Part shown: one piece after another, positions 7,573-38,548 of the stretch
Position numbering within the stretch: position 1 is the stretch's first letter
Layout: the number at the start of each line of letters is the position of its first letter
Origin: a virus
Lineage: Duplodnaviria > Caudoviricetes
Reading direction: 5' to 3' (one strand)
IMG/VR virus record: IMGVR_UViG_3300027744_001006
Location: 1 to 40,117 of that record
DNA length: 40,117 nucleotides
Notes under the pieces: generated by a model
Told to the model about the DNA's origin: nothing
Seen by the model: the letters and a program-made list of their open reading frames with translations, nothing else
Databases searched by the model: none
Position numbers and translations under genes: made by a program

Positions 7573-7577
7573 TCAAA

Positions 7578-13353: not shown

Positions 13354-13359
13354 TAAATA
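13354..13359 (+). promoter_or_regulatory. TAAATA late-promoter-like box
   Basis: 10 nt before ATG 13370, first gene of enzyme cluster. Confidence 0.55.
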
Positions 13360-13369: not shown

Positions 13370-14350
13370 ATGACACAAGACTTCACCAAAATACCATTTG
13401 ATGCCATAACAAGATTTGGTCAACGCACCATGTTGCATCGTCCATTGTTTTCTACCAGTTGGATTCTAGGTCGCTTCTGCAATTACAACTGTAGTTACTG
13501 CTGGCCCTATGCTCGCAGTGACCAAATGGATTACCAACCATTTGAAGTCTACACCAACGCCATAGACGAAATCAAAAAACAAGCTCGCCAAAATGGCTTC
13601 AATGAATTCCATTGGAGTTTCAGTGGGGGTGAACCCACAGCCTACAAACAATTTCCGAATTTGGTCAAACACCTAGACGAAACCGAAAGTCCTTACCAAA
13701 GCATACATATGACCACTAATTTGTCGCCAGGATCAAAATGGTGGAACACTTGGTGTGCCAATACTGCGCTGTTACAACGCAGAAGCATCACAGCCAGTTT
13801 TCACGATGAGTTTGCCCGCGAACAAGAGTTTGGTGACAAGTGCCTACAGTTACAATATGAACTAGTACACGTTACTATCAATCAAGTCATGGTTCCGGAA
13901 AAGTTTTTTGATCTATATGAACGTATGGCTCGACTGCATGCTCGAGGAATTAATGTAACACTGAAACCACAAAGTGATCCCACTGCGAGTCGTGTGGTGG
14001 ATGGGTATACTGAGGAAATGATAAGACTATTACAAACTGGGTTTCCTCAAACATCACAAGGTGAAGAAGTTTACCAAATTGCTCTGTACGATCACACAGG
14101 TCAAGAATATCTTTTTGATCAAGCAGAACGATTTAATGCTTTTGGATTCAATAAATTTCAAGGTTGGAGTTGCAATAGTGGTTATCAAAGTGTTATAATA
14201 AGAGGTAATGAGGTAAAGAGAAGTTATAGTTGTCACGACGCACCTTTAGGTACATTAGACAATTTTGAATTGTTTAAGGAACCGCAACGCTGCATCACTC
14301 CTAGCTGTGTGAGTTCGGCAGATAGTAAGATACCAAAATGTATAAATTAG
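13370..14350 (+). CDS. radical SAM protein with C-terminal twitch-like Cys motif
   Basis: CNYNCSYC, SGGEP, TTN; C-terminal C..G...C...C...C. Confidence 0.9.
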   Translation: MTQDFTKIPFDAITRFGQRTMLHRPLFSTSWILGRFCNYNCSYCWPYARSDQMDYQPFEVYTNAIDEIKKQARQNGFNEFHWSFSGGEPTAYKQFPNLVKHLDETESPYQSIHMTTNLSPGSKWWNTWCANTALLQRRSITASFHDEFAREQEFGDKCLQLQYELVHVTINQVMVPEKFFDLYERMARLHARGINVTLKPQSDPTASRVVDGYTEEMIRLLQTGFPQTSQGEEVYQIALYDHTGQEYLFDQAERFNAFGFNKFQGWSCNSGYQSVIIRGNEVKRSYSCHDAPLGTLDNFELFKEPQRCITPSCVSSADSKIPKCIN

Positions 14351-15315
14351 AAGATATCAGAGACATACATCTAGAATTAACCAGCAAGTGTCAAGCACGA
14401 TGCCCTATGTGCCCACGACGAATCAATGGCGGCGTATTAAACCCATTGATGAATCTAAATGAAATAACGCTAGAACAATTTAAAGAGTGGTTTCCAGTCC
14501 AATTTATTCAACAGTTAGACAGTCTGTTTATGTGCGGCAACTTAGGCGACCCTATCATGGCACACGAGTGTTTACAAGTGTTTCAATACTTGAGAGAAAT
14601 CAATCCTAACATACGCATAAGTATGCACACTAACGGTAGTGCTAGAAGCGTTCACTGGTGGAAAGCCCTAGCCAAGTACAAAGTTAAAGTCACATTTGGT
14701 ATAGATGGACTAGAAGACACACACAAATTGTATCGGGTCGGCACCGACTGGCACAAGATTATAAAAAATGCGTGGGCATTTATCCAAGCAGGCGGTGAAG
14801 CTGAATGGCACATGCTAGTCTTTAAGCACAACGAACACCAGATAGAAGAATGTCAAAAAATAAGCAATGACATGAAATTTAAAAAGTTTACAACTAAACA
14901 CACCAGCAGATTTAAAGATGGCAAGTTTAATGTATTAGATGAGTCCGGCAAGACCGTTAATATTTTATATCCTACAGAAGTCAGTACAACACTAACTGCA
15001 AACGTACAGTCGATGGTTCCTTGGGAAATACAATGCAAGGCTCAAAAATACAAACAGATCTACGTTGCGGCGGATGGCACAGTTAGTCCTTGCTGTTGGT
15101 TAGACTTTTCATGGCAGTTAACTAATCAGGACAACAGAATCGATTACATGGATTCCGTGGGCGTATTCCCCAATCTAAATAAAAATACCATGAAAGAGAT
15201 ATTCGATTCGGGGTATTTCAAGACCATAGAAGACTCATGGGCTAGCAAGCCATTAATAGAGTGTAGCAAGCAATGCGGAAAGTTTGATAAGTTAGGAGCT
15301 CAATTTGTTAGTTGA
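14338..15315 (+). CDS. radical SAM protein with SPASM/twitch domain
   Basis: CQARCPMC, GNLGDP, HTNG, GIDG, G.V.PCC, CSKQC. Confidence 0.9.
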   Translation: MYKLEDIRDIHLELTSKCQARCPMCPRRINGGVLNPLMNLNEITLEQFKEWFPVQFIQQLDSLFMCGNLGDPIMAHECLQVFQYLREINPNIRISMHTNGSARSVHWWKALAKYKVKVTFGIDGLEDTHKLYRVGTDWHKIIKNAWAFIQAGGEAEWHMLVFKHNEHQIEECQKISNDMKFKKFTTKHTSRFKDGKFNVLDESGKTVNILYPTEVSTTLTANVQSMVPWEIQCKAQKYKQIYVAADGTVSPCCWLDFSWQLTNQDNRIDYMDSVGVFPNLNKNTMKEIFDSGYFKTIEDSWASKPLIECSKQCGKFDKLGAQFVS

Positions 15316-15901
15316 TACAGAACATTTGCACTATTGGATGCAGGCTATTCGTCAAAGTCCCGATCCTATGCGGACCATGGATGCCTTCTGGAGTGGTCAG
15401 CTAAAGAGCAAAGAATGGTTGATTACAAATCTTCGTAACCATGTAACAAAATTTGTTACTATAGACATCCATGGTGGATGGGTAGGCGTACTGGCCAGTA
15501 TGCTGTTTCAAAGCGATGTTCCGATAATTAACATTCGTAGTATTGATATTGATCCCACCTGCGAACCTATTGCCGTTAACATGAATAAGATTGAAGAAAT
15601 GTCTGGTAGATTTCGTGCAATTACCGCAGACATGTGTGAAATACGAAGTGATGCAGATGTTATCATCAATACCAGCTGTGAGCATATTACACAGGATCAA
15701 TTTGATTCATGGAGAAGCGTAATGCCACATAACAGTCTGTTAGTGTTACAAGGTAATAATTATGATATTTCTGAGCACATTCGCACTGCGGTCTCGTTAG
15801 AAGAATTTAAAACTCAATGTGGTATCGATGTTATATGGGCCGGTGAGTTAGAACTTCCACTCTATACTAGATGGATGGTAATAGGTAAGAAATATGTATG
15901 A
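15305..15901 (+). CDS. class I SAM-dependent methyltransferase-like protein
   Basis: IHGGWVG motif I, SIDID motif II, INTSCEH; TTG start. Confidence 0.7.
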   Translation: MLVDTEHLHYWMQAIRQSPDPMRTMDAFWSGQLKSKEWLITNLRNHVTKFVTIDIHGGWVGVLASMLFQSDVPIINIRSIDIDPTCEPIAVNMNKIEEMSGRFRAITADMCEIRSDADVIINTSCEHITQDQFDSWRSVMPHNSLLVLQGNNYDISEHIRTAVSLEEFKTQCGIDVIWAGELELPLYTRWMVIGKKYV

Positions 15902-17328
15902 ATTTAATGAATAAAGTATTTTGGATGCAGTCCACCGATACCCAAATAGGTAAATGGCAGGAACAAATTAAAGGTGTATCCGGTAGCCCTAGTTTTTGTG
16001 TGTTGCCCTGGATACATCTAGCAACAAGACCCAACGGAGACATGCGTATCTGTTGTGTTGCAAATGCCAGCGGAGCCGACTCTGGAGATTATACAGTTGG
16101 GCTAGTTAAAAAAGAAGATGGGGAGCCGGCAAACTTTGCTAACGATCTTCCCACAAGTGCATTTAACAATGACTATATGAAGTCAGTACGTAAGACTATG
16201 CTAGAGGGAGCGGTTCCTGCTAGTTGCACTAAATGCTTTCAAGAAGAAGCAGAGGGGATTGCCAGTAAGCGTATTTGGGAAACTGGCACCTGGCACCTAA
16301 ATGAAAAGATCGATATTAAAGAACTGATTGCTGAAACAGAACTAGACGGCTCAATTCCATATAAACTACAATACTTAGATTTAAGATTAGGTCATACTTG
16401 TAATTTAAAATGTATTATGTGCAGTCCGCATGATAGCAGTATGTGGGTTGCCGATCATAAAAAGGTGTTTCCTATATTCACTAGCTCATTGATCAAGAAA
16501 CAAATGAGTTGGGAAAGTTCAGACTTCAACAACAAGTGGTATGAGAACCCTGCATTCTGGGCAGAAATTTATGATCAAATACCTAACATTAAACAGTTGT
16601 ACTTTGCAGGTGGCGAACCGTTATTAATTAAAGAGCATAAAGTATTCTTATTAGAAATTATTGCTCGTGGATATGCTGGACAGATTAGTCTACGTTATAA
16701 TACTAATGGCATTCTGGTTAATGATGAGATTATAGAAATATGGAGTCAGTTCCGCAAAGTAAAAGTAGGAGTTAGTCTAGACGGCATTGGACCACGAGGA
16801 GAATACATACGCTATCCATTAGACTGGAAAGAAGTAGAATCCAACCTGGTTAAGTTAGATAATGCACCAGACAACATACAGACCAACATCGCTATGGCAG
16901 TACAGATATTAAACATCAAACATGTTCCAGATTTTATTAAGTGGAAGGTGCGTATGAAATTTAACAAAATAAACTTTGATCTAAATGCAGCAGGCCAAGT
17001 GATGGGTGGTGGACTAGTAGGCGTACATTTATTATGGATACCAACTTGGTTGAGTCTACGTGTACTACCTAAAGAAGATAAACTCGAAGTACGAAAATTA
17101 TTTGCAGAACTACAGCAATGGTTGTGGGACAACTATACACAGGATACAGAATTTTGGGAAGTCAACCCGTACGGCTGGAAACGTTGGGAAGGCATATTAG
17201 ATTGGATGGACAAAGAAGATCATGCTAATCTATTGCCGGATTTTCGAGACTATATTTCTACCATGGACGCACAGCGAGGAACTGATTTTTCTCAGACTTT
17301 TCCAGAATTGAGTCATTTAATAAAATGA
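15898..17328 (+). CDS. radical SAM protein with N-terminal twitch/SPASM-like domain
   Basis: N-terminal CVLPW..G..R.CC..CTKC; CNLKCIMC; FAGGEP; YNTNG; SLDG. Confidence 0.9.
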   Translation: MNLMNKVFWMQSTDTQIGKWQEQIKGVSGSPSFCVLPWIHLATRPNGDMRICCVANASGADSGDYTVGLVKKEDGEPANFANDLPTSAFNNDYMKSVRKTMLEGAVPASCTKCFQEEAEGIASKRIWETGTWHLNEKIDIKELIAETELDGSIPYKLQYLDLRLGHTCNLKCIMCSPHDSSMWVADHKKVFPIFTSSLIKKQMSWESSDFNNKWYENPAFWAEIYDQIPNIKQLYFAGGEPLLIKEHKVFLLEIIARGYAGQISLRYNTNGILVNDEIIEIWSQFRKVKVGVSLDGIGPRGEYIRYPLDWKEVESNLVKLDNAPDNIQTNIAMAVQILNIKHVPDFIKWKVRMKFNKINFDLNAAGQVMGGGLVGVHLLWIPTWLSLRVLPKEDKLEVRKLFAELQQWLWDNYTQDTEFWEVNPYGWKRWEGILDWMDKEDHANLLPDFRDYISTMDAQRGTDFSQTFPELSHLIK

Positions 17329-17759
17329 AATTTTGTCGTATTAATTTAAGCAAAACTAACTATGAGACCATGGTTCAAGAACACCAATGGCAATATGTCA
17401 GCGATCGTCAGTTCTCCGAATTCAACGATATCTACGAAAAATATTGCAGATACAAAAAATTCGATAGCGTCATGCCCATATTTCCAAATCAATACACTGA
17501 TAACTCAGTTGACATTGTGGGATATTTTGATAATGGCCAATTGGTAGCTTGGGATATGATTAAAATACATGATGCTAAAAACGCAGAAGCATTACAGTTT
17601 GCGTGGGACTATATCAATCCGGATCTACGATTGGGCATGGAAAGTCTAAAGAATGCCTGTGCTATCTATAAACACAGAGGCTTCAAATATCTATACCTAG
17701 GCGCCGCAGCAAATTATAAGAAAGAAATTGACGGTTATGAAGAATTAGGCCCTGTCTGA
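17325..17759 (+). CDS. arginyl-tRNA-protein transferase C-terminal-like (GNAT fold) protein
   Basis: YFDNGQLVA, WDY..PDLRLG.ESL, GFKYLYLG...YK resemble ATE_C. Confidence 0.6.
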   Translation: MKFCRINLSKTNYETMVQEHQWQYVSDRQFSEFNDIYEKYCRYKKFDSVMPIFPNQYTDNSVDIVGYFDNGQLVAWDMIKIHDAKNAEALQFAWDYINPDLRLGMESLKNACAIYKHRGFKYLYLGAAANYKKEIDGYEELGPV

Positions 17760-18221
17760 TCTCCAAGATACTACATCATTGTACAGACCTTCTGGCCAAT
17801 TCTTATAATATCCTGCATCAGTTAGTTGTTTGCTAGCCAAATTTAGTTTTTCTTTCTGCTGTACTAATATAAGATTGTATCGACCGTTGCTGAAATTTAA
17901 GTGATGGAATATTTCCGGTATATCTTTATGATCCTCTAAACATACGAATCCTCTAGACAGCCAATAGTCATTTAGACATCTGACATCTAGTATAAAATTA
18001 GTCGGGTCTACATCGCCACATACGAATCCCACGACATCATACTCCGTAGACCAATTTTCTAAACACTGCGTAATATCGAAAATGTAATTGTCAGTTTCTA
18101 TAAATTTTATCCTAGCCTTTCTAGCATAAGGACACGGAGGCAAGCCGTTGAGTAGAGCCTCTGGTTTACTTAGAAATTCTTCTATCCATGATCTAAGATA
18201 CTGTTCAAATTCCGTAGTCAT
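17745..18221 (-). CDS. hypothetical protein, DUF1415-like
   Basis: WI..F......L.PCPYA motif; start taken at MTTEF. Confidence 0.55.
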   Translation of the reverse strand: MTTEFEQYLRSWIEEFLSKPEALLNGLPPCPYARKARIKFIETDNYIFDITQCLENWSTEYDVVGFVCGDVDPTNFILDVRCLNDYWLSRGFVCLEDHKDIPEIFHHLNFSNGRYNLILVQQKEKLNLASKQLTDAGYYKNWPEGLYNDVVSWRSDRA

Positions 18222-19386
18222 TTTGATTACCACTTCGTCTGATGTCAAGTGTTAGGCAATGCCAACCACCGTCCCAAAAAAATCTATGTCGCAACGGACA
18301 GTATATTGGTTCAAGATTATGTTTTTTCAAAACAGAAAATAATTCTTTGCTATTACTGTTTACAACAACGTGTCGATCATCAACTACTAAACAATTTAAA
18401 TCAAAAATAGTTTCTTCAACGAACCCGGTCCAATTAGGCAATACTGATTCTACAAATTTAGTAAATTCATAGTTCTCCTCCTCTCCCGGAACCCACCACT
18501 TTCCCCTATTCTGTTCTTTTAGGTCATGAAATTTCCCCACATCTTCCCATCGTGTATCATTGAAATAAATTACTTCCCAGCCTTTAAAATTATGCTCTCG
18601 ACCTTTGAACCACGGCCCGGCAATGACCACTCCTGGTTTTAACACACTAAAAATACCATCGTTGTGGCCGCCAAGCATTAATTTACTATAATTAAATTGC
18701 GGATATCGTTCCATAAGATAAGTTATCGCTTCTTCAGTTTGATGCAAATCAACTAGACACTTTTTTCCTATCCTAGTTATATTTGGACTACAAAATCCAG
18801 ACAGTGGAGCATTTAAAAGTAGTTTATTTTTTTCGTCTTGGGATAACAGATCGTAGTTTATATCCAGCCCTTTAATTACTATGTATTCTTTAAAATTATC
18901 TTCAGTACGTTGGAATTGTTTTTCTCCGTTGTACAAAGTTAAATCTATTTGTTCAGGCCCAAACCATTCCTGAAATTTTTTAACGTATCCGTCTACCTCA
19001 AACGTTTTATCTGTGATTAAGATTTTATTCCCCATTACAACAGAGTCGTCGCGAACCTGTAACGGGTGAATTGGAATTAATGCATCCCTTACTATGTGTG
19101 AACTTTCGCTAGCGTGACCAATTCTGCCATTAACATCTGCATAATCTAATATGCTGCTATGGTATCCTAATTCCGTAGGAGATGCTTGAAATACTTCTAT
19201 GTTATGAGATTTCATCTGTTCTTTAAAATATTCGATATCCTCGGTGGTCTCATCGCATATTTTCTTAAGAACATCACATATTTTCTTATTTTTCACACCG
19301 TTAAAAAAACTACCGTCATAGGTACTTCCTACGACCACAGCTTCTAATGGTTGAAACTCGTCCCAACTATTAACTTGATTTTTCAT
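18205..19386 (-). CDS. amidinotransferase (glycine/inosamine-phosphate amidinotransferase family)
   Basis: NSWDEFQPLEAVVVG, VRD, GHNDG, GGWHCLTLDIRR with catalytic Cys. Confidence 0.85.
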   Translation of the reverse strand: MKNQVNSWDEFQPLEAVVVGSTYDGSFFNGVKNKKICDVLKKICDETTEDIEYFKEQMKSHNIEVFQASPTELGYHSSILDYADVNGRIGHASESSHIVRDALIPIHPLQVRDDSVVMGNKILITDKTFEVDGYVKKFQEWFGPEQIDLTLYNGEKQFQRTEDNFKEYIVIKGLDINYDLLSQDEKNKLLLNAPLSGFCSPNITRIGKKCLVDLHQTEEAITYLMERYPQFNYSKLMLGGHNDGIFSVLKPGVVIAGPWFKGREHNFKGWEVIYFNDTRWEDVGKFHDLKEQNRGKWWVPGEEENYEFTKFVESVLPNWTGFVEETIFDLNCLVVDDRHVVVNSNSKELFSVLKKHNLEPIYCPLRHRFFWDGGWHCLTLDIRRSGNQNDYGI

Positions 19387-19706
19387 TATTCCCAATCTCT
19401 ATAATATGCGTGTTGAATGTTGTCACCAACAAATTGATTAAAACTTCGATGTTTATCTTCTAACTCGCCTTCTAATGGTGCTACTCGCTGAAATGCTTCT
19501 TCGAGCTGTGCCATATTATTAAATTCCATCATAATATGCCATTCGGGGATATCTAGACTACGGAACCCCATCTTGCATCTAGTAACACGGAATGAAATCA
19601 TCTTTCTCTCGTCTACTAACTGTTGTAAGAATTTTTTCATATTACCGACCCATTCGGAATCGGTAATATCTCCTTTTTTGTCTGCCCAAATGTGATAAAT
19701 GTCCAT
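19386..19706 (-). CDS. small dimeric alpha/beta-barrel-like protein (DUF6614-like)
   Basis: 106 aa; R..RCKMGF, EWHIMMEF..MAQLEEAF; family call from memory of pattern. Confidence 0.5.
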   Translation of the reverse strand: MDIYHIWADKKGDITDSEWVGNMKKFLQQLVDERKMISFRVTRCKMGFRSLDIPEWHIMMEFNNMAQLEEAFQRVAPLEGELEDKHRSFNQFVGDNIQHAYYRDWE

Positions 19707-19711
19707 GATGA

Positions 19712-19717
19712 TATTTA
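19712..19717 (-). promoter_or_regulatory. TAAATA late-promoter-like box
   Basis: TAAATA-tcatc-ATG(19706). Confidence 0.6.
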
Positions 19718-20611
19718 TTCTGGTTTATATTTGGTTAACGGTATATCGGCCGCACATGTACACCAATCTCGTGTGCAAATGATCGGACAATCGGGCGGAA
19801 AGAATGTACCTTGATATATATTGCCTAAACTTCCGCCTACTCGGCAAGTTGCTCGGTGAACATCGCCGTCCCAGTTAATCATAAGACTTTCAATGCCAGC
19901 ATTGCACGTCCATCCGTTGAATTGATTTAGATGTTTTTTAATAACATCGTTGGCATGAATCACTTGATCGTTGTCAACACGGCAGTTAGGTTTAACTGTA
20001 GCGTCCTGAGACACGATCCATTCTAGGTCTTTTCCGTCATAACGCATATCATCAAACACATTATGATCACCTTCAGTCCATCGAATCCTACGTATAGTAT
20101 ATTTGATTCCTTTTTCTTTTAATTCTTTGACAACTTTTCTAACATCTTCCATGTGATCGTGATGCGCCATTACCGCAACAAAAAACTCATGCTCAGTGGA
20201 ATCGTAATACTGATTGATTGTGTGCATCACACGTTGCCAATCATGTTCGAAATGCAGGCTGAAAATAAGATGATTCCAAAACATTTCATGGTGTAAATAC
20301 CAAGTAGCTGATCGTGTGCCATTGGTAGTTATATTCACCCAAAATACGTTCTTTCGTTTGAAATATTCCAATAGATTTTCAATATCTGGATGTACACAGG
20401 GTTCGCCTCCTGTTAAACTAATGCGTAATGGTTTTCCTAACTCGCATAATTTATCTACCGTTGCTTCTAAAATATCAATATCTGTATGAGGGCTAAAATT
20501 ATCGTGTATTGCGCTAGGACAATATGAACAATCGTAGTTGCATCGCTTACCAAGATTCCATTCTACCTTAATTTGATCTTGATGCGGCCACGAACTTGTT
20601 ATTTTATACAT
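19715..20611 (-). CDS. radical SAM protein with C-terminal twitch-like motif (paralog of 13370)
   Basis: CNYDCSYC, TGGEP, TTNG, GWTCNAG, C...WCTC. Confidence 0.9.
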   Translation of the reverse strand: MYKITSSWPHQDQIKVEWNLGKRCNYDCSYCPSAIHDNFSPHTDIDILEATVDKLCELGKPLRISLTGGEPCVHPDIENLLEYFKRKNVFWVNITTNGTRSATWYLHHEMFWNHLIFSLHFEHDWQRVMHTINQYYDSTEHEFFVAVMAHHDHMEDVRKVVKELKEKGIKYTIRRIRWTEGDHNVFDDMRYDGKDLEWIVSQDATVKPNCRVDNDQVIHANDVIKKHLNQFNGWTCNAGIESLMINWDGDVHRATCRVGGSLGNIYQGTFFPPDCPIICTRDWCTCAADIPLTKYKPE

Positions 20612-21863
20612 ATTGTTTAAACTCCGGAGTTACTTCTTCAAAACATTGAGTTCGTGTTTTATCTAACCTACGATTAAATTCTATACAGTCTTGCCACTTA
20701 TCGCTTTGATCTCGTGCTCGCAAGTAATTAATGTTATCCTGTATTTGTCCTAGAGTATATTCTAATAGTTGTGGGTGTTCTTTGACTAATTTAAAATCTT
20801 TAACTCGCTCACGTACAGCAATTAGTTTGTCTATTGCTAACATTTTTAGTTCACTAGGCAATACTTGTGCTGATAACAGTTTAGGATATTCAACACGATG
20901 CGTATGGAACACAATACCTAGGTCGTCTAGAAAGTATTCGATTATTTTATCTAGAACAATAACATTACTAACTTGTACAGTAACAGCACCAACTATGCGA
21001 CTGATGTTTGGAATAGTCTGTATCTGTTTAATGTTATTAACGAGTTCTGCCCAGCTGGCATTACCTCGAATATATTCATAACTATTACCGATGCCATCTA
21101 TGCTCACGTTAACCGCTACTGACTTGAACTTAGGCCAGTACTCCCACACGGTTCGATTGCTTTTACCCAGTATGGTTAAATTGGTAGCATACTTAATTTC
21201 TACTTGGTGCCCGTACGGAGCAAGCATATCCAGTATTCGATAGTGTTGCGGATCCATTAACGGTTCGCCACCGGCAAACTCTACACGACGGAAGTGTGGG
21301 AGCAACTTTTCTAAACTAGCCCACCATTCAGGATTGTCTTGGAATTTATCAAGATGCGGCTTATTTTCTAAATCGTGTTTTTCTACAATAGCATACATGA
21401 TATTACCTTCTGCTTTGTAAAAGTCTTTTACTTCACTCCAGTCATTCCAACTAGTACTATCCATCGGATGACACATGCGACATTTTAAATTACACAAATT
21501 GTTTAGTTTGAGTTCCATTGTAGGAATCTCAAAAGGCATAGTAAAATCGTGACGCATTTTTTTCAATTCATCTGGGTACAAATTTATTCTTGCTTCTGGA
21601 ATTTTTCCTGCAATATGTCGCTGGCGCAGACTTTCAACACCCTGATCTTCTAAACTAAAGCAAGGTTCACATTCAGCAGGTCTTTCACCTATTAACACCT
21701 GTCGACGTATTCGCTGCATGATCTCACTGTTCCAGTGATACTCTAATGGAGCATCCTGAATAAACCCAATAGGGTGGCTTCGACAACAAGCACAGATAGC
21801 ACCGTCTTCTCTAGTTGCTAGTCCTGTAAAGGGATGCATACAAAATGTTTTACTTTGGTGCAT
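20604..21863 (-). CDS. radical SAM protein with N-terminal twitch/SPASM-like domain (paralog of 15898)
   Basis: FCMHPF..CACC..CEPC; CNLKCRMC; FAGGEP; SIDG. Confidence 0.9.
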   Translation of the reverse strand: MHQSKTFCMHPFTGLATREDGAICACCRSHPIGFIQDAPLEYHWNSEIMQRIRRQVLIGERPAECEPCFSLEDQGVESLRQRHIAGKIPEARINLYPDELKKMRHDFTMPFEIPTMELKLNNLCNLKCRMCHPMDSTSWNDWSEVKDFYKAEGNIMYAIVEKHDLENKPHLDKFQDNPEWWASLEKLLPHFRRVEFAGGEPLMDPQHYRILDMLAPYGHQVEIKYATNLTILGKSNRTVWEYWPKFKSVAVNVSIDGIGNSYEYIRGNASWAELVNNIKQIQTIPNISRIVGAVTVQVSNVIVLDKIIEYFLDDLGIVFHTHRVEYPKLLSAQVLPSELKMLAIDKLIAVRERVKDFKLVKEHPQLLEYTLGQIQDNINYLRARDQSDKWQDCIEFNRRLDKTRTQCFEEVTPEFKQYV

Positions 21864-24017: not shown

Positions 24018-24021
24018 GAAA

Positions 24022-24052
24022 TATTTACCCTCATTAAGTACACACATAAATA
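24022..24052. promoter_or_regulatory. divergent pair of TAAATA boxes
   Basis: - strand 24022-24027 (4 nt to ATG 24017); + strand 24047-24052 (5 nt to ATG 24058). Confidence 0.7.
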
Positions 24053-24057
24053 TTTCT

Positions 24058-30880: not shown

Positions 30881-31913
30881 GTCTATATTTTTCAGGTACT
30901 GTGTCGAACAACATCTGTCCTCGATTGACTGCTTGATCTCTCAATATAACTTGATGTAGCAATGGACTCATTGGCTTCCCAGGAACAATACTCGCCCAAG
31001 ACTCGCTTTGAACTTCTTCGAGATCAATGGTTCTCACATCACACCATTTAATAAATTTATGTTCAATTCCGTTTATGCGTACAGCATAATGTGTACGATT
31101 ACCACCAACATAATCAGGGTTCCATGACCAATTATTATCTTTACAAAACTGTTCAGCATCAGCTACTAATTCTGACAAATATAACTCTTTAAAGTCACCT
31201 TCCGGTACACGGCCGATCTCAACGCCTACCTGTATTCTAGCATTAATCTTAAACTTCTGTACTTCATGCATCACATCGGCTAACTGTTCTAAGTCGGCCA
31301 GCGTATAAGTCAAGGTCTTTACATCTAATCCCAGCTTGAAACAATTTGCTAAACCTTCCATCTGTTTGTCGCGAATCTGACCGCCATTGTATTCAGGATG
31401 ATTAAGTCCAAAGGTCCATTTAAGTCTAGGTATGCCTTCAAAACGTTTTACATAATCCCACTTGGCCAAGTACACACCGTTAGTAACTACTATAACATTT
31501 CTAGGCTTGCCGGGCAAGGCCTGGATAGCTAACACTAAGTCAGCAAGGTCTTTTCTTACTGTGGGTTCAGCACCAACTAGACTCACAGGATATCCATTAT
31601 CCGGCCACGATTCAACTTCAGCCAACAAGTAATCTATGCTTGGATCCTTGCTGTTATTATCGGGCATTTGATAACAATGCGGGCATTCTAGGTTACAACG
31701 GTTAGTAATGTCTAACCAGTATGATCCCGGTCTCCGTTTTTCGTATTGCTGATTGGCATAGAATACGGAATCGATTTCTAATAGTTCTTCATGATATCCG
31801 TGTTTCGGGCAAGTTTTGCCTAACCAAATCGCATTGTCTTTTTCAAACTTTACAGCAGGTATGTGTCTGTAACAATTTTCACATAGAGAAATAGTATCAC
31901 TTATTTTGTTCAT
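30873..31913 (-). CDS. radical SAM protein with N-terminal CxxC...CxxH metal domain (tandem paralog)
   Basis: SLCENC..KTCPKHG; CNLECPHC; GAEPT; VTNG. Confidence 0.87.
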   Translation of the reverse strand: MNKISDTISLCENCYRHIPAVKFEKDNAIWLGKTCPKHGYHEELLEIDSVFYANQQYEKRRPGSYWLDITNRCNLECPHCYQMPDNNSKDPSIDYLLAEVESWPDNGYPVSLVGAEPTVRKDLADLVLAIQALPGKPRNVIVVTNGVYLAKWDYVKRFEGIPRLKWTFGLNHPEYNGGQIRDKQMEGLANCFKLGLDVKTLTYTLADLEQLADVMHEVQKFKINARIQVGVEIGRVPEGDFKELYLSELVADAEQFCKDNNWSWNPDYVGGNRTHYAVRINGIEHKFIKWCDVRTIDLEEVQSESWASIVPGKPMSPLLHQVILRDQAVNRGQMLFDTVPEKYRHE

Positions 31914-31919
31914 GGCAAA

Positions 31920-31934
31920 TATTTATGATAATTA
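31920..31934. promoter_or_regulatory. divergent TAAATA / TAATTA boxes
   Basis: - strand TAAATA 31920-31925 (6 nt to ATG 31913); + strand TAATTA 31929-31934 (4 nt to ATG 31939). Confidence 0.6.
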
Positions 31935-31938
31935 CTGT

Positions 31939-32631
31939 ATGGACAAAAAATTTAATTACTACTACAATAACGTGCCAGGCCATGGTCCATGTCGAAACAA
32001 CTTGATATATACTAGTCTAATGTCCGAAGACAATTCGGTGTTTGTACAATGGTACCACAATGACACAGAATATCACAAAGATAAAAATCAAGTTGTAGAC
32101 CCTGCCAAAATGGCGGAAAAGTGGTTGCGTGAAGTTAATTACCTAACGCAGATGCGCAACACTTTCCCGGATCTTGTTCCAACGATTATTGAAATTGATT
32201 TAAAAGCTCGTAAGTTGTATTTAGAGGTTGACGGTTCTGACTTTTGGGAACAGTCGGGGTGTGACATGGCTAACTACGATTCTGTATTACCGGATTGGCA
32301 AGACCAGATGATTGAAATTATCAAGGCACACAAAAAGTTAGGATTACACAAATACAGCATGCATCCTAGCAGTTATTTTGTAGTTAACGGAACGCTTAAG
32401 AGCATCAACTATTTCTTTACATATAGTAACAAAGAAGCTATAATAAGTATTGCGGAAGTTGAAAGTCACATTTACAGTACAAGGCAAGATGAAATGCGCA
32501 AACATCTGTCTACATTAGGAATTGAATGGGACAAGCCACAACCGTGGGATTTGATGGATCAACTGTGTTGGGCCAGTTTTAGTACCAACTATCCCTCTGA
32601 CTTTATTGAGAAGGTTAAATGTTTAAAATAA
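31939..32631 (+). CDS. protein-kinase-like fold protein with degenerate catalytic motifs (paralog of 26261)
   Basis: WLREVNYL, VPTI, LYLEV, LPDW, LKSINYF; start at MDKKF. Confidence 0.55.
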   Translation: MDKKFNYYYNNVPGHGPCRNNLIYTSLMSEDNSVFVQWYHNDTEYHKDKNQVVDPAKMAEKWLREVNYLTQMRNTFPDLVPTIIEIDLKARKLYLEVDGSDFWEQSGCDMANYDSVLPDWQDQMIEIIKAHKKLGLHKYSMHPSSYFVVNGTLKSINYFFTYSNKEAIISIAEVESHIYSTRQDEMRKHLSTLGIEWDKPQPWDLMDQLCWASFSTNYPSDFIEKVKCLK

Positions 32632-33170
32632 CACAGTGGTCTAAAGATTTAGATCTCACTGAATTCTATGCCACAGCAGAAGCCAAAGGATTTACAAACA
32701 ACGCCAGTCAACAGATGTTGGTAGATAGCCTTGCCAAAGAACAACACTGGGCAGTTTGGATTTTATACTATCACGACAAAGCTGTAGGCAGTGTCGCTGC
32801 TCATAGTTTTCCAGAGATGGGAGAAGATGCATTTCGCATCGCAGCACGTACTTGTGTGTTTTCAGACCATATACCTATTCCTAGTATTCGTACACGCAAT
32901 CAAATTGTAACACATCAACATGTTACTAGTCAGTTTTTAATTCCTACTTGCATTGAGTGGTGCCCGCCTTGGGCTAATTTGTATATCACTAGTAATGAGA
33001 ACAGTGTTGGCACACAGCGATTAGTACACAACATATTTGGGCCTGCTATGGAAGCAACAGGTCAAATGAAACGCATTAAAGAAATAGAGTATAGAGGTAC
33101 TAAACAAACTGTATGGGAACTCTACGCTAAAAAATTTTTAGAAGAGGTAGAAAGGAATCCAAGATGGTAA
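32619..33170 (+). CDS. GNAT-like acyltransferase
   Basis: WILYYHDKAVGSVAAH, RIAARTCV, LYITSN pattern. Confidence 0.5.
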   Translation: MFKITQWSKDLDLTEFYATAEAKGFTNNASQQMLVDSLAKEQHWAVWILYYHDKAVGSVAAHSFPEMGEDAFRIAARTCVFSDHIPIPSIRTRNQIVTHQHVTSQFLIPTCIEWCPPWANLYITSNENSVGTQRLVHNIFGPAMEATGQMKRIKEIEYRGTKQTVWELYAKKFLEEVERNPRW

Positions 33171-34609
33171 TGAAATTTAAAACTGAAAAGAAACAATCGA
33201 TTGTTTTTTGTATGTTAGATATTATTGATAGATGCCAAAGTAGCACAGCAAGAGATGTGTGCGTAAATTTAAGTGATTTTTTAATAAATCGAATTGACAT
33301 GCACGGGCACGATATTTTTATCGGCAAATGTGAAGATTCTCTATTACAGGCAGCTACCGAAGAAGGTTATAAACATGCAGTCATTATTGCAGCCGGCACT
33401 AGTTTAGGTTTGTCAGATAGACTCTTTGGAGCCATTGGAGATTTATGCGAAGAAGAGTTTTTTATTGCAGGACATATTCTTGATCGGGGCGATCATTCGT
33501 ATTATAAGAAAAATGCCTGTTTTGAATTGCACCAACAGTTCTATGTGATTAATCTTGAACAGTATAAAGATTTAGACATGCCTGCAGTAGGTAAAGAAGA
33601 ATGGGTAGACTACCAACAGATTGCTCCTATCCGCAGTGAAGAATGTTTATACGATGATCCGGAAATTCCCGTGTGGATTAAAAAAGGCACCGAGACTAAA
33701 ACATACTCTGTTAAGTTGCATGGATGGAACATATTAAATGCTGGCTTAGAAAACGATAAGATACTGCTGACACTAAATGAAAAAATTCGCACTAGTAAAA
33801 AATATCTATACTATGAGTACGATCATGTTTTCTTAAAAGAATTAACCCAGATAAAATATTATCATTTTTTTGGTATGAATTTCTTTGCAGGATGGAACTC
33901 GGACAATCTAAGAAACGACTTACCATTTAACGGTCCAGTTGAACAATATGCTACAGTTGGCATTGGTTTTCACTGGATTAAAAATCTTCAACTCATCAGT
34001 TTCACAAAAGATACACGAGTTGTATTCACTGACATCAATTATAACTGTTTGATGTTCATGAAGAAGATGGTCGAAACATGGGATGGCAAAAACTATGCAG
34101 ATTTCTACTGGGAAAATAAACCCATGTTGCCCAATAATCCTCCCTATATTTCAAACAGTTATAAAGAGCAAATAGCAGAACAATGGGAAAAGTTTTTAAC
34201 TACAGTCGACAACTGGGATTCTTTATGGAAGGAAGTCAAAAAACTAACTTATGATTATATTCTTATCGATTATACAGCAGCCTTTAATTTTGATTGGTTA
34301 GAAGCGGGCAAAAACACATTGTTGAATTTAAGCGATCTTTACAATCATTCTCCTTTTATTTCTTCAACAAGTTTAAAATATCGTATTGCTTGTGAAAACA
34401 TGCTATTTCAAAAGCTACAAAAGAAAGATCCTAACGTAACGCTTATGCTGACATCAAGAGCCGCAGACGGTTTTTGGAAAGTCAAGATAGATCAGCAGTT
34501 AGATAAGGCCATCAATTTTGTTTATACAGACATCGAGGATTTAAAAACTCCCAAGTGGCACGAAGAGGACTGGAAACACGAAAGCGGAAGACCGTTAGGA
34601 GTAGAGTAA
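33164..34609 (+). CDS. hypothetical two-domain protein
   Basis: about 480 aa ORF coupled to both neighbours; no family confidently recognised. Confidence 0.75.
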   Translation: MVMKFKTEKKQSIVFCMLDIIDRCQSSTARDVCVNLSDFLINRIDMHGHDIFIGKCEDSLLQAATEEGYKHAVIIAAGTSLGLSDRLFGAIGDLCEEEFFIAGHILDRGDHSYYKKNACFELHQQFYVINLEQYKDLDMPAVGKEEWVDYQQIAPIRSEECLYDDPEIPVWIKKGTETKTYSVKLHGWNILNAGLENDKILLTLNEKIRTSKKYLYYEYDHVFLKELTQIKYYHFFGMNFFAGWNSDNLRNDLPFNGPVEQYATVGIGFHWIKNLQLISFTKDTRVVFTDINYNCLMFMKKMVETWDGKNYADFYWENKPMLPNNPPYISNSYKEQIAEQWEKFLTTVDNWDSLWKEVKKLTYDYILIDYTAAFNFDWLEAGKNTLLNLSDLYNHSPFISSTSLKYRIACENMLFQKLQKKDPNVTLMLTSRAADGFWKVKIDQQLDKAINFVYTDIEDLKTPKWHEEDWKHESGRPLGVE

Positions 34610-35256
34610 TGAAAGAATATTTTAAATCTGAGGGTCGTTACCTAAAATTAGCTATAGAAATTCCTTACGAAAAAATGTGTGAGGAAGCATTTTCTTTAAT
34701 AGATAAATTTACTCCGCACAGAGGAGATGAATATAGTCATGTAGGTTGGGAAAGTTTAACCTTACACGGACTTGGTTGGGACAAACATGAAAACTGGAAT
34801 GACTACGGTTACAAACAAGGAAAAGATGCCAGCAATGATATGTTCTGGACAGAAATATCAGGATTGTGTCCTATAACAACTAGATGGCTTAAAGAAGTGT
34901 TTCCATGCGGAAAATATGGCAGAGTTAGATTTATGTTGCTACGTGCAGGTGGAAAGATTGCCTTGCATAGTGATTCAAGCATAAAGCTGATTGAAAATAT
35001 AAATGTTGCTCTAAATAATCCACCTGGTTGTAAATGGGTATGGGGAGACGGTGAAGAAATAATTATGGAGGCGGGCGGTATATATGCTATGAATCTACAC
35101 TATCATCATGCGGTGATCAATGAAAGTGATGAGGATCGTATGCACATGATTATTGCTAGGCATGACGCCACCGATGAATGGAAAAAATTAGTAGAAGATG
35201 CTGCCAAAGAACAAGGCATCACCGGTGAATACGTTGTTATAGATGACTTGCCTTAA
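34609..35256 (+). CDS. Asp/Asn beta-hydroxylase-like Fe(II)/2OG oxygenase
   Basis: GRVRFMLL..GG.I..HSD, N....HAV.N.S..DRMH; TAATG-coupled start. Confidence 0.8.
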   Translation: MKEYFKSEGRYLKLAIEIPYEKMCEEAFSLIDKFTPHRGDEYSHVGWESLTLHGLGWDKHENWNDYGYKQGKDASNDMFWTEISGLCPITTRWLKEVFPCGKYGRVRFMLLRAGGKIALHSDSSIKLIENINVALNNPPGCKWVWGDGEEIIMEAGGIYAMNLHYHHAVINESDEDRMHMIIARHDATDEWKKLVEDAAKEQGITGEYVVIDDLP

Positions 35257-36137
35257 CTTGTATAATCCTGATCTGGATAGTCAAAACAGGCTCTGTGTAA
35301 GGTTCTTTCTGTTATATTTTTAAACGGCCATCTTTTATGTATACCTGTTTCTTGATCGGCAATTAGAATATCTCCATCTTTCCAATCATGGTGATAAACA
35401 TACTCTTCTCGAATTACAAATTCTTTTAAGAATTCAATAACTTCTTTACTACGCTCGTTGCTCATTTCTTTAATCTTGTGAATATGATACATTGGAAAGA
35501 AGATTCCTTTATTTCCAGCTTTGTTTGTTTTTATTAAAGGCGGAGCATATGGTGATAGTCCGTCTGAACCTAGTTTCAGCATTTCAGAAATATCGTTTTG
35601 CACTTCATCTGCTCCCAACCCTAATCCAACATAAATTTCAAGGTGGCAGTTTTCTAATTCCTGTTTTAACTCTTCATCGAGATCGTTGTATGACAAACTA
35701 CTATTAGTATAGCTAGTTCTTGATCCTGCAGTTCCCTCGACGCCTCGTAACCAAACTATTGATCTGCTACCTTCTACTCCTGGTTCATTACAATGCCATA
35801 CCATTTCGCAATCATAGGCAGCAATTCCTACTTGACCATTTTTATCTTTTTTCCCGCTCACACGTAAAAATAAATCATCAGATCCTTCTACTACAGCACC
35901 ACCTAAGTCTGATACATAGTTTTCGGCAATAGTAGGAATATAAGTTTGAGTATTTTTGAACATTTTTAAAACTGTTACTTCATCGGCTATTGTTAAATTT
36001 TGATTTCGAATAACTACCAGCGTGTTCTTTGCAATTAATTTTGATATCTGGTTTATATTTTCCTGAGTTGCTTTACTAATATCAAAGTCTTCAATGATCA
36101 CAGTCCAGCTGTTATTGTGTATTTTATAATCTATCAT
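35253..36137 (-). CDS. TauD/TfdA-family dioxygenase-like protein
   Basis: LVVIRNQ.L, WHCNE, G..T.Y, YHHDWKDGDILIADQ...IHKR, RTLHR. Confidence 0.82.
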   Translation of the reverse strand: MIDYKIHNNSWTVIIEDFDISKATQENINQISKLIAKNTLVVIRNQNLTIADEVTVLKMFKNTQTYIPTIAENYVSDLGGAVVEGSDDLFLRVSGKKDKNGQVGIAAYDCEMVWHCNEPGVEGSRSIVWLRGVEGTAGSRTSYTNSSLSYNDLDEELKQELENCHLEIYVGLGLGADEVQNDISEMLKLGSDGLSPYAPPLIKTNKAGNKGIFFPMYHIHKIKEMSNERSKEVIEFLKEFVIREEYVYHHDWKDGDILIADQETGIHKRWPFKNITERTLHRACFDYPDQDYTS

Positions 36138-36151
36138 CTTACCATATCCTT

Positions 36152-36988
36152 TTATTTTGTGTAATCTTGATCAGGAAAGTTAAACACAATTCTATGTAAT
36201 AGTCTACTGGCCATGTGCGGGAATGCCCAGCGTTTATGTATACCTAGCCATTGTTCACTTAGTGTAATATCTCCATCTTCCCAATCATGATGATACAGGT
36301 ATTTTTCTTGAGTCGTATGTTCTGTTAGGTATTCCATTGTTTCATCTATCTCAGTTACAGGAACCCCGACCAGCCCGTGTATTTGTAAGAAAGGAAAAAA
36401 CAAACCAGTTATACCTGCAATATTGGTATGAACAATGTTTGGTGTCCAATATTCTTCTCCGGGCACATTGTCATCATTGTTTCTCCAATGTTTCATCCTT
36501 GCTTTAATTGGTGCAACTTTTTCTTTCCACGTTTGATCTAAATCGTTGTAAGATAAAATATTGTTATTCCATGTGGTTCTTGATCCCGCAGTTCCCTTTT
36601 CACCACTTAACCAAACTATTGATCGGCGCTGTGATCTATTTGAATCATTGCAGTGCCATTTAAGTTCATCGTTGTCTCCAGCAAAGCCCGCGTTACCGTG
36701 CTCGTCTTTTGCTCCGGTGACTCGAATCAAAAATCCTTCGCTGTTAGGAACAATTGCATCTTTGTAGCCATCACGTTCTGGATCAGTAGGATCAAACACA
36801 AAAGGATCTTTAAACATTTTAGTAACTCTAACTTCGTCTGCAACTGTTAAGAATTGTTTTTTAACAATAACTAGAGTATTGGTAGCAATTAATCTGGCAA
36901 TTTGATTGACATCATCTTGCGTAACAGTTTTAAAATCTACATCATCTATTATTGTGGTCCAACCATTTTCGTGTAAGCGGTAGTTCAT
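36152..36988 (-). CDS. TauD/TfdA-family dioxygenase-like protein
   Basis: WHCND, YHHDWEDGD, IHKR, RLLHR. Confidence 0.82.
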   Translation of the reverse strand: MNYRLHENGWTTIIDDVDFKTVTQDDVNQIARLIATNTLVIVKKQFLTVADEVRVTKMFKDPFVFDPTDPERDGYKDAIVPNSEGFLIRVTGAKDEHGNAGFAGDNDELKWHCNDSNRSQRRSIVWLSGEKGTAGSRTTWNNNILSYNDLDQTWKEKVAPIKARMKHWRNNDDNVPGEEYWTPNIVHTNIAGITGLFFPFLQIHGLVGVPVTEIDETMEYLTEHTTQEKYLYHHDWEDGDITLSEQWLGIHKRWAFPHMASRLLHRIVFNFPDQDYTK

Positions 36989-37830
36989 GTATTTTTCCTT
37001 TCTGGATAGTCAAACATTGCTCGATGCAACAATCTAATACTTATATTAGCACACTGATGTCTCATATGTAATCCGGTACGATTGTCGCATATGGTAACAT
37101 CACCAATTTTCCAATCATGATGGTAGACGTATTTTTCTTGTGTAATATGATTTGAGATACGGTCAAGAATGTCTCTGCTATCTTCTAAACTCATTCCTTC
37201 GAAGTGGTGTATCTGCTGAAATGGGAAATACAGATGTTTTTCACCCAATGGGGTTTCTCTAACAACATCACAAGTATACCCTGTATACTCTTCTCCGTTG
37301 GCCCATTTGCGTCCTTTATTATCTTCTTCAAAAGAGTCAACGTTAAGATATATGTATCTTTTCATCACAGCCTTTAGAGACCCTAATAAATCTTTGTCTT
37401 GTTGTGATAAATCTTTATAAGACATAATATTGTTTAACCAGGAAGTTTTTGAGTTTTCGACTCCTGTTATGGCTCGAAGCATTATTAAACATACTTTGTG
37501 ATCTAACTCCCAATGAAAGTCATGGTGCCATGCCATTTCATCGATGTGTTCTGCAATGCCATGATTACCTTGTTCGTTTGGTAATCCGCCTACTCGTAGT
37601 ATTTTTCCATTTGAATTAGGTACTGAAAGTTTTTTAAAGGAATCCTTGCAGTGATTTACTATCGACCCGACATCTTTAAATTTGTTGTTAACTGCAATTT
37701 CTTGTTCAAGCGTTAAAGTTTGATTTTTAAATATAACTAGTGTATGTGTTGCAATAAGATTTGCAATTTGATCCACATCGTCGTGTGTTGCTGTTGATAA
37801 ATCTATATCAATTATAGGAGGATTAAACAA
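36985..37830 (-). CDS. TauD/TfdA-family dioxygenase
   Basis: VIFKNQ.L, WHHD, YHHDW.IGD....DNR..LH, RLLHR; TTG start. Confidence 0.85.
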   Translation of the reverse strand: MFNPPIIDIDLSTATHDDVDQIANLIATHTLVIFKNQTLTLEQEIAVNNKFKDVGSIVNHCKDSFKKLSVPNSNGKILRVGGLPNEQGNHGIAEHIDEMAWHHDFHWELDHKVCLIMLRAITGVENSKTSWLNNIMSYKDLSQQDKDLLGSLKAVMKRYIYLNVDSFEEDNKGRKWANGEEYTGYTCDVVRETPLGEKHLYFPFQQIHHFEGMSLEDSRDILDRISNHITQEKYVYHHDWKIGDVTICDNRTGLHMRHQCANISIRLLHRAMFDYPERKNT

Positions 37831-38548
37831 TATTCTCTGCCTCTATTCTTGTTCTAAATTCATCTGTGAATGTTCCGTTTATTCTCAAAGTGTATGTAGG
37901 CCGTTGAATAGGTAAGCCGCCATGCCAAACAGTTTCATTCCACCAGGCAGCTCGAGTGTTCATAAACACACGATTTCCAGTATCTGGATCAATTATATAA
38001 AATGGTCTATCACAGTCTGTCTTGATATGCACAAATTCTGACATTGTGGATAACGGCGATTCTGATGGAGGATCTCTATGCTCCCAAGGAATACCCCCAG
38101 AATCTACAGTTATTATGTTTACTTGATATAATGATTGAAAAACTCCAGAGTCTATCAGACTGTGTATCCATTTTATCAATCCCGGAAAATGTTTTGAACA
38201 TTCGCCTATTACATTGTATTCCCCAATAACGGGATACACTCGATAGAAGTCATAGGCTCCAACTGAATATTTTAAATAATCTGTGAGTTGGTTGTGGCTT
38301 AGATCTTTTCCTGCGATTTTAAATGCATCATCTTCTGGTAAATCTTTCCAACTTTTGACCATATTCCAAAGAGGGGTCACGGTTATTCCTTGCGCCCAGG
38401 GGCGAATTTCTCCGTAGGTAAAATGAATTCCGTCCCAAGCAAGATCTTTAGCAGTGGCTATACCTCTGCAAATTTCTGGTTTTAGATTATCCCATTCTGT
38501 CAGATCTATGTGTTTTTCTAAATCTATAAAAAGTTGATTGTTAGTCAT
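37823..38548 (-). CDS. putative Fe(II)/2OG-type oxygenase (paralog of 29035)
   Basis: GIPWEHRD, NTRAAWWN...WHGG, LRING; start at MTNNQ after TAAATA. Confidence 0.6.
   Translation of the reverse strand: MTNNQLFIDLEKHIDLTEWDNLKPEICRGIATAKDLAWDGIHFTYGEIRPWAQGITVTPLWNMVKSWKDLPEDDAFKIAGKDLSHNQLTDYLKYSVGAYDFYRVYPVIGEYNVIGECSKHFPGLIKWIHSLIDSGVFQSLYQVNIITVDSGGIPWEHRDPPSESPLSTMSEFVHIKTDCDRPFYIIDPDTGNRVFMNTRAAWWNETVWHGGLPIQRPTYTLRINGTFTDEFRTRIEAENIV

Follow-up and report, generated by a model that had tools for sequence, protein, structure and literature searches.

A conserved island of predicted tailoring enzymes in T4-like jumbo phages: a candidate system for building and editing a virion glycan

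What a phage does with some 25 kb of contiguous genes for modifying enzymes, and on which molecule these enzymes act, are the questions raised by IMGVR_UViG_3300027744_001006, a Caudoviricetes record of IMG/VR that we analysed as a whole (the window, 40,117 bases, 10% complete by CheckV). At positions 13370-38548 lies an island of 30 open reading frames (ORFs), mostly predicted modifying enzymes, which as called tile 13370-38575, form six units of alternating strand and leave about 89 non-coding bases (largest gap 40, with corrected starts and an approximate start for the AspH gene), as expected from the about 30 contiguous genes described in an earlier reading of the letters alone (hereafter the original prediction). 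The contig is a virus record and not a stretch of bacterial chromosome. A dedicated viral modification system that decorates the virion had been proposed; the block is indeed conserved, carries a late-type motif and often adjoins a fibre gene, whereas the target is something we infer. Our own reading, held tentatively and with slightly less than even confidence, is that the island, expressed late, builds and edits a glycan of the virion. The locus gives about 25 kb to soluble enzymes, from families without a characterised member here, that are conserved under purifying selection and under a late-type motif. Were the virion their target, no bacterial virus known would carry a chemically richer decoration, and host range or defence in abundant aquatic phages would vary along a new axis. 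On any target, the enzyme family NF033640, the pseudokinases and a glycosyltransferase-methyltransferase without DXD motif offer new enzyme chemistry.

A conserved core and exchangeable cassettes

Relatives were gathered with NTw1, a radical S-adenosylmethionine (SAM) enzyme of the island: 101 viral stretches were recovered and 80 kept, 35 longer contigs were fetched whole or in part, and 24 near-whole islands were chosen for presence counts. The relatives are T4-like jumbo phages, of which G001 (270 kb, 76% complete) encodes gp23, gp20, terminase and PolB. Eight families are present in all 24 islands, among them rS1, rS3, NTw2, the pyridoxal phosphate (PLP) enzyme, Ox238, a kinase-fold gene and a SPASM enzyme (coordinates in Table 1), followed by the methyltransferase and the GNAT-labelled gene (23 each), Ox277 (22), Ox163 (21), the glycosyltransferase-methyltransferase protein (GT-MT) and AspH (20 each), and a zinc-ribbon radical SAM enzyme (19). 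An additional radical SAM enzyme, absent from the window, also occurs in 19, and in most relatives it occupies the site where the window has its ATE-amidinotransferase-DUF6614 cassette, whose members are rare (amidinotransferase 7/24, ATE-like and DUF6614 1/24 each). Gene order and accessories are mosaic among the relatives, which variously encode a sulfotransferase, carbamoyltransferase, halogenase, desaturase, class III aminotransferase, epimerase and UDP-sugar dehydrogenase. Because near-universal families thus stand alongside mosaic order and accessories, the island is a fixed core plus swappable cassettes, and not a set of genes scattered independently in relatives. The island is uncharacterised, as the original prediction held in calling it an undescribed system, but it is not unique: NTw2 has relatives in 2,799 protein clusters at E ≤ 1e-30, and simpler modules are described for Campylobacter phages in the accessible part of PMC2853527.

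The ratio of non-synonymous to synonymous substitution rates (dN/dS), measured between the window and the best of eight close relatives, is 0.04-0.20 for 26 island genes and 0.19-0.27 for three TauD genes, and is saturated for rS2; where measurable, the island genes are under purifying selection. Four lake RNA libraries contain short contigs, often identical to parts of the island, at depths of 2-18. These contigs carry no strand information and may derive from carried-over DNA, so that they place the phage in lakes without proving transcription.

Across the 35 contigs, the hexamer TAAATA occurs 2-14 bases before the ATG at 109 of 176 divergent unit heads versus 13 of 555 inner genes of the island; shuffled hexamers not overlapping TAAATA reached at most 16. 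In the window, five of the six unit heads have it. In G001 it lies within 60 bases of 11 of 35 structural genes versus one of 20 replication genes. Given this enrichment at unit heads, the contrast in G001 and a resemblance to the T4 late consensus, TAAATA is likely a late promoter, in keeping with the late-type promoters first noted from the letters.

Candidate glycan enzymes and competing explanations

The absence of a visible scaffold gene, a premise of the original prediction, was an error, as the 481-residue GT-MT protein (33164-34609), which has no database match, is a candidate scaffold-acting enzyme. In its model (pLDDT, the predicted local distance difference test, 78) residues 11-230 adopt a GT-A fold whose top structural match is domain 1 of PBCV-1 A064R (2p6w; Z 10.1, root-mean-square deviation 3.6, 167 residues aligned), followed by STIV A197 (Z 9.9), and residues 231-451 adopt a methyltransferase fold (Z 8.8); Foldseek matched the model to LH3 (E 2e-4). 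GT-MT models as a soluble two-domain enzyme. Because the DXD motif is lacking, we do not assign it to A064R/GT34, and a glycosyltransferase (GT)-like activity is a prediction from the model. The gene is present in 26 of 36 contigs searched, with AspH no more than two genes away in all 26, and one Atlas cluster fuses the two (score 0.84; a lead only). An apparent tandem duplication of the GNAT-labelled gene, GT-MT and a PP-loop paralogue in the map of one relative (G012, L119) was set aside as probably an artefact of overlapping stretches.

Both proteins that had been called kinase-fold, Kin1 and Kin2, do have that fold (model pLDDT 94; Z 13.5 to BRAF and IRAK3, 12.6 to Rio1), but the catalytic-loop Asp is found in none of 62 kinase-fold sequences (Ser in 48, Thr in 8, Ala in 3, Asn in 3) and the VAIK Lys in two, and we predict that they are pseudokinases. 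A Lys two residues before the Asp position is invariant. The family is under purifying selection, and invariant Lys, Tyr and Pro residues replace the catalytic set; these phage pseudokinases may conceal an activity other than that of a kinase. The top 50 structural matches of Kin1 include no aminoglycoside or choline kinase, to which it may nonetheless be related, and fusion searches found none with the kinase profile. Kin2 directly precedes the GNAT-labelled gene in 21 of 23 contigs with both. The GNAT label itself found no support, as Pfam, NCBIfam, PHROG and PDB profile searches gave no match, and a kinship between this 183-residue protein and the ATE-like protein was rejected after a comparison that gave a probability of 0.1.

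In the scheme that we propose, every chemical step of which we infer, the AspH-type enzyme paired with GT-MT would hydroxylate a virion protein, or Ser/Thr would serve as acceptor; a sugar would then be transferred to it and methylated, on the pattern of mimivirus L230 and chlorovirus A064R. GTs encoded elsewhere in the genome (GT42-like with KdsA, GT8, GT25, GT9) would extend the glycan. A single conserved set of C-H edits to the sugar, or to its precursor, would fall to the core, made up of five or six radical SAM/twitch enzymes together with the PLP enzyme, Ox238 and the methyltransferase. Variety in the product would come from the exchangeable accessories (amidino, carbamoyl, sulfo, halogen, acyl, TauD), with the pseudokinases as possible binding partners and the phage IscU and IscA as possible suppliers of Fe-S clusters; the likely purpose would be altered receptor binding or shielding of the particle. 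This reading draws on the GT-A fold, the pairing with AspH, the epimerases, UDP-sugar dehydrogenases, sulfotransferase and carbamoyltransferase of relatives, the GT-like neighbours, the NF033640 copies near GTs, the sugar-transferase-type genes of phages Mosig and CP220, TAAATA at unit heads, and the adjacency of the fibre.

Several observations weigh against it. The core has no gene for sugar-nucleotide synthesis, and amino acids are the usual substrates of the AspH, TauD, PLP and amidinotransferase families. The GT-A domain of GT-MT is only 4-9% identical to its top structural matches, nucleotidyltransferases tie with GTs among these (Z 9.5-9.7), the DXD position is occupied by AAG in the window and by DAD in two of 28 homologues (three not parsed), and the gene is missing from four of the 24 islands, hence not invariant core. 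In G001 the major capsid and portal genes have no TAAATA within 60 nucleotides. An Mtd-type fibre gene lies within 3 kb of the island in 14 of the 24 and not in the other 10 (some incomplete), and in G001 the nearest is 27 kb away. Co-variation of cluster content with fibre type had been raised as a check: in the 14 islands, similarity over the last 150 fibre residues does track accessory content (rho 0.47, p 0.02; rho 0.46 when core identity is accounted for), as does whole-fibre similarity (rho 0.29, p 0.04), but this was one of six tests and physical linkage alone could cause it. The 24 islands are, moreover, mutually related, and NTw1 is present in all by construction. A more specific proposal, that a large group of lake and coastal jumbo phages treats its own particle as the substrate of a natural-product-type assembly line, in which the uncharacterised N-twitch/SPASM core, the pseudokinases and the DXD-less GT-MT install a novel type of hypermodified glycan or residue on fibres, with swappable cassettes and an anticodon-free tRNA-like RNA as a possible private aminoacyl donor, strikes us as conceivable though doubtful.

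The enzymes could also modify side chains of a virion protein directly, in the manner of ribosomally synthesised and post-translationally modified peptides (RiPPs), by hydroxylation, epimerisation, C-methylation, amidination or cross-linking, with the fibre or another large virion protein in place of a precursor peptide. SPASM/twitch and B12 radical SAM, AspH and ATE families often act on peptides, and the island has SPASM/twitch and B12-like radical SAM enzymes, AspH-type hydroxylases and an ATE_C-like protein; its pseudokinases are closer to protein kinases than to small-molecule kinases, the late motif and fibre adjacency fit equally well, and the window's fibre has three G-S/N-x-x-x-x-D-S-S/T repeats. 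However, the repeat occurs in only six of 14 adjacent fibres, so compact a block has no space for a precursor gene (a precursor elsewhere or a large substrate being possible), neither the window nor 81 loci nor 32 genome stretches (G001 among them; contigs incomplete) yielded a CHxS/R-tailed small protein among ORFs below 260 residues, the 30 ORFs gave no match to PqqD or a RiPP recognition element (RRE) in Pfam, the one collection used, and the GT-A fold and glycan-type neighbours go unexplained; we judge this explanation unlikely. Our estimate is similarly low for a diffusible amino-sugar or amino-acid metabolite, or late editing of the host's surface polysaccharide or lipopolysaccharide. 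Twitch and B12 radical SAM enzymes, an amidinotransferase matching StrB1, a class III aminotransferase, a carbamoyltransferase, a halogenase and adenylating enzymes speak for it, such enzyme lists resembling aminoglycoside-type tailoring sets, as do the position of the island, which varies, and a plasmid copy of NF033640 within a surface-glycan-type cluster. The same two options were proposed for cyanophage clusters (Iyer 2021, in the accessible part of PMC7824862). Among the 30 ORFs, however, we recognised no transporter and no membrane or export gene, GT-MT models as soluble, a late motif would be poorly suited to surface exclusion, and the recurrent placement beside fibre or tail operons is left unexplained.

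Hypermodification of phage DNA or nucleotides, for example by extending 7-deazaguanine or another base before packaging, appears quite improbable. It would recruit radical SAM, PLP, methyltransferase and GT families, which occur in known DNA hypermodification, and QueD in the window, FolE, QueD and QueE in G001 and a PP-loop paralogue that passes the Pfam QueC cut-off would suit it; yet the Que genes lie in the replication region, outside the island, the PP-loop orthologue is in only 13 of the 24 islands, and the late motif is rare at replication genes. ThyX is encoded in the window and in G001, and no match to a deoxyuridine monophosphate (dUMP) hydroxymethylase, which replaces thymidylate synthase in the 5-hydroxymethyldeoxyuridine (5-hmdU) pathway, was found among 179 G001 proteins scanned (record 76% complete). 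There was no PADLOC match among 18 unannotated G001 proteins and no tRNA-guanine transglycosylase (TGT)/DpdA match (PF01702) in five incomplete records, although a divergent DpdA could escape: the DpdA transglycosylase is the signature of 7-deazaguanine DNA modification, and DpdA3 is divergent (bioRxiv 2023.04.13.536721, accessible part). Palindrome avoidance was discarded as evidence against DNA modification, being non-discriminating: observed over expected counts are 0/256 for GCGC in G001, 0/244 for CTAG in G004 and 0/159 for CATG in G031, and in the window only CGCG is reduced (14/33), but the control CP220, reported to be fully modified with 2'-deoxy-7-amido-7-deazaguanosine (dADG), also shows it (CATG 1/55). 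Four relatives (G001, G004, G031, G033) each lack, or nearly lack, one 4-base palindrome (GCGC, CTAG, CATG and ACGT), and these differences may point to different hosts. Least probable, in our view, is a collecting ground of unrelated auxiliary enzymes without a single pathway. The highly mosaic accessories and order, and a synonymous divergence (dS) from one relative that runs from about 0.1 to 2 among genes, would agree with it; eight families in all 24 islands, NTw2 identities of 65-93% across relatives, one shared promoter motif and the recurring pairs of Kin2 with the GNAT-labelled gene (21/23) and of GT-MT with AspH (26/26) would not.

Enzymes of the island and related systems

Table 1. 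Features of the window. Presence is the number of the 24 near-whole islands that have the feature.
Feature	Position	Strand	Presence	Remarks
Backbone genes: GT8-like (below cut-off), KdsA-like, QueD, GT42/CstII-like, virion-protein-like	3059-7576	-		outside island
GT42/CstII-like transferase	6117-6710	-		profile E 6e-5
Virion-protein-like gene	6710-7576	-		
tRNA-like RNA	13200-13304	-		ACCA end, long variable arm; head-to-head with rS1
TAAATA before rS1	13354-13359	+		likely late promoter
rS1, radical SAM with C-terminal twitch-like Cys	13370-14350	+	24	core
rS2, radical SAM/SPASM	14338-15315	+		Pfam
Predicted class I methyltransferase	15305-15901	+	23	NTSCEH family
NTw1, N-terminal twitch radical SAM	15898-17328	+		NF033640 member (NCBIfam)
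ATE_C-like single domain	17325-17759	+	1	below cut-off; rare accessory
167-residue protein without assigned function	17745-18248	-		homologues in 6/7 islands having amidinotransferase
Amidinotransferase	18205-19395	-	7	pentein fold
DUF6614 protein	19386-19706	-	1	
rS3, radical SAM with C-terminal twitch-like Cys	19715-20611	-	24	core
Other TAAATA sites	24047	+		
Other TAAATA sites	24027, 31925, 38559, 19717	-		
NTw2, N-terminal twitch radical SAM	20604-21863	-	24	core; NF033640 member
SGNH-like protein	21850-22461	-	13	below cut-off
PP-loop ATPase with C-terminal Cys motif	22445-23173	-	13	QueC-like; any PP-loop 16
Predicted PLP fold-I enzyme	23160-24017	-	24	core
Ox238, AspH-type oxygenase	24058-24723	+	24	core; extra C-terminal domain
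Radical SAM with B12-binding-like N-terminus	24720-26264	+	16	Pfam B12 E 0.007, below cut-off
Kin1, protein-kinase fold	26261-26947	+		no catalytic Asp or VAIK Lys
Ox163, predicted cupin oxygenase	26944-27435	+	21	
rS4, radical SAM/SPASM	27436-28527	+		rS2 paralogue
Ox174, predicted cupin oxygenase	28511-29035	-	16	
Ox277, HxD..H..R protein	29035-29868	-	22	oxygenase by motif only
Zinc-ribbon radical SAM 1	29819-30880	-		HMPTM-type N-terminus
Zinc-ribbon radical SAM 2	30873-31913	-		HMPTM zinc ribbon
Kin2, predicted pseudokinase	31939-32631	+		
Conserved 183-residue protein	32619-33170	+	23	'GNAT' label
GT-MT, predicted fusion of a GT-A (or nucleotidyltransferase) fold with a class I methyltransferase fold	33164-34609	+	20	no DXD
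AspH-family hydroxylase	34555-35256	+	20	Pfam
TauD-family oxygenase 1	35253-36137	-		Pfam; H-C-N motif
TauD-family oxygenase 2	36152-36988	-		Pfam; H-C-N motif
TauD-family oxygenase 3	36985-37830	-		Pfam; H-x-D motif
Ox250, Ox277 paralogue	37823-38548	-		oxygenase by HxD..H..R motif only
Mtd_N-type fibre protein	38623-40110	-		passes Pfam Mtd_N; 23% Ser+Thr, no Cys; candidate target

The nine CxxxCxxC proteins of five architectures first noted are all present, eight above the Pfam Radical_SAM (PF04055) cut-off and the ninth, rS4, at 27.9 against a cut-off of 29.5 (E 3e-6). NTw1 and NTw2, in which an N-terminal Cys set precedes the CxxxCxxC motif, score 390 and 327 bits with NF033640 (N_Twi_rSAM; cut-off 170), which was passed in none of 14 control genomes; among the matches listed, the prokaryotic viperin family NF038283 reached 28-44 bits against a cut-off of 180. 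We found no characterised NF033640 member in the literature searched. G001 carries two further members that adjoin GT-like genes or a carbamoyltransferase, and a copy on a bacterial plasmid sits amid three GTs, AsnB and an ABC exporter. A single NTw2 sequence searched against GTDB genomes returned one 2.6-kb contig within a metagenome bin. A Crocinitomicaceae metagenome bin (L114, G040) holds seven NF033640 genes on short contigs, one of them 82% identical to NTw2; these contigs are probably mis-binned phage DNA. Fusion searches also turned up one PLP-radical SAM fusion.

As for the nine oxygenases originally counted, AspH and the three TauD proteins pass Pfam, three more have family-level support (25 of 30 Ox238 family members match Asp_Arg_Hydrox at E ≤ 0.05, and Ox163 and Ox174 were assigned through profile matches to an AspH-annotated Mosig ORF), while Ox277 and Ox250 have the motif only. 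TauD1 and TauD2 read H-C-N at the usual H-x-D iron motif, H-x-N variants being common among 24 homologues. The amidinotransferase label is supported by PDB profile matches to HsvA (E 2e-8) and StrB1 (8e-6). The ATE-like, SGNH and PP-loop labels correspond to matches that fall below cut-off, and the PLP label to weak fold matches with threonine aldolases (E 0.35-0.9); the island PP-loop protein matches QueC weakly (E 0.005). PDB profile searches were uninformative for GT-MT, the methyltransferase, Ox277 and the GNAT-labelled protein. Directly before GT-MT, some relatives (G014 and G019, L125:2950-4398 and L136:13559-15007; also G015 and G016) have a 482-residue adenylating enzyme with an AMP-binding-type motif; these are islands without a PP-loop orthologue, and the enzyme may replace one activation step. 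A cassette of class III aminotransferase, amidinotransferase, 167-residue-type protein and cupin occurs in G001 (L082:16273-19477) and in G030, G032 and G033.

The literature searched, with subscription papers and supplements outside the search, gave no characterisation of this island, which is a much enlarged variant of published phage tailoring clusters and lies outside every characterised pathway tested. The question dates from the CP220 genome of 2010. CP220, a cultured phage, and CPt10 have exchangeable modules with five radical SAM enzymes and an amidinotransferase, to which no function is assigned in the accessible part of the report (Timms 2010, PMC2853527). Three CP220 enzymes match the rS2/rS4 SPASM profile (E 1e-25 to 1e-30) and two sugar-transferase-type genes follow, but the module comprises about 10-12 genes, without an NTw1 match and, in the 28.7 kb examined, without a PLP, pseudokinase, oxygenase or GT-MT homologue. 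A smaller homologous island in the cultured Pelagibacter phage Mosig EXVC030M makes the question testable: its 52-73 kb region, which the first part of the Mosig paper does not mention (PMC7892664), adjoins tail-fibre genes, as the island often does, and has homologues of the PLP enzyme (E 7e-20), the methyltransferase (4e-20) and a SPASM radical SAM enzyme (3.5e-28), as well as SGNH, AspH, TauD, desaturase and epimerase homologues. It differs in having two or three radical SAM enzymes, at about 25% identity, and the 20.5 kb examined gave no match to GT-MT, to a pseudokinase or to an N-twitch enzyme.

The glycans of mycobacteriophage virions are reportedly built by ordinary glycosyltransferases, with no comparably large tailoring island. 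Closest in fold and pairing are two eukaryotic-virus enzymes, A064R, a GT-GT-methyltransferase that builds the chlorovirus capsid glycan, and mimivirus L230, a hydroxylase-GT (PMC9614988, accessible part). The island shares with A064R a GT-A domain fused to a methyltransferase and with L230 the pairing of a GT with a 2-oxoglutarate-dependent hydroxylase, but GT-MT has 4% identity, no DXD and no second GT domain, and the pages available describe no radical SAM core in those viruses. In bacterial viruses, capsid and tail proteins can carry glycans (mycobacteriophage; Freeman 2023 as cited in the accessible part of PMC12619734). The jumbo cyanophage clusters proposed to decorate polysaccharide or make a metabolite (Iyer 2021) have a carbamoyltransferase, methylase, halogenase, 2-oxoglutarate oxygenases and cupins that recur among the accessories of the island's relatives; they are smaller (8-12 genes), and 'radical SAM' and 'SPASM' occur zero times in the accessible text of PMC7824862. 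In Ralstonia phage RsoM2USA a single N-twitch-type enzyme accompanies DUF6071 proteins and a carbamoyltransferase. Cyanophage S-SCSM2R has a 30% identical amidinotransferase, and an amidinotransferase encoded next to KdsA/KdsB genes is reported from its virion preparation (PMC12801897, accessible part). NF033640 itself covers only two of the 30 island genes.

The tRNA-like RNA and neighbouring genes

The block does lie, as was said of it, between a tRNA-like gene and a tail-fibre gene, the fibre passing Pfam Mtd_N and the RNA being conserved with paired stems. ARAGORN and Rfam did not call the RNA; its acceptor and T stems are paired and covary, and the length of its anticodon arm varies freely. 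It faces rS1 head to head in 22 of 33 contigs with rS1 (within 100 bases in 21), an arrangement that occurs in two different neighbour contexts and may be explained by shared ancestry. Where the RNA is absent (11 contigs), rS1 is mostly preceded by GT-like genes (so labelled for a DxD-type motif), often in a position that closes a long virion operon.

IscU and IscA lie 12 kb from the island, and the backbone stretches 352-1568 and 12965-13156 encode IscA, IscU, superoxide dismutase and an Hc1 histone-like gene. The GT42-like, KdsA-like and GT8-like genes are 7-10 kb from the island; the genes of 3059-7576 are largely conserved in relatives and might form a glycosylation set of Kdo type. Further GT clusters occur in G001. 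In its replication region a GT-B-like gene stands beside FolE with QueE nearby (L086:17937-19915, L087:4643-5491), a candidate DNA-modification set apart from the island.

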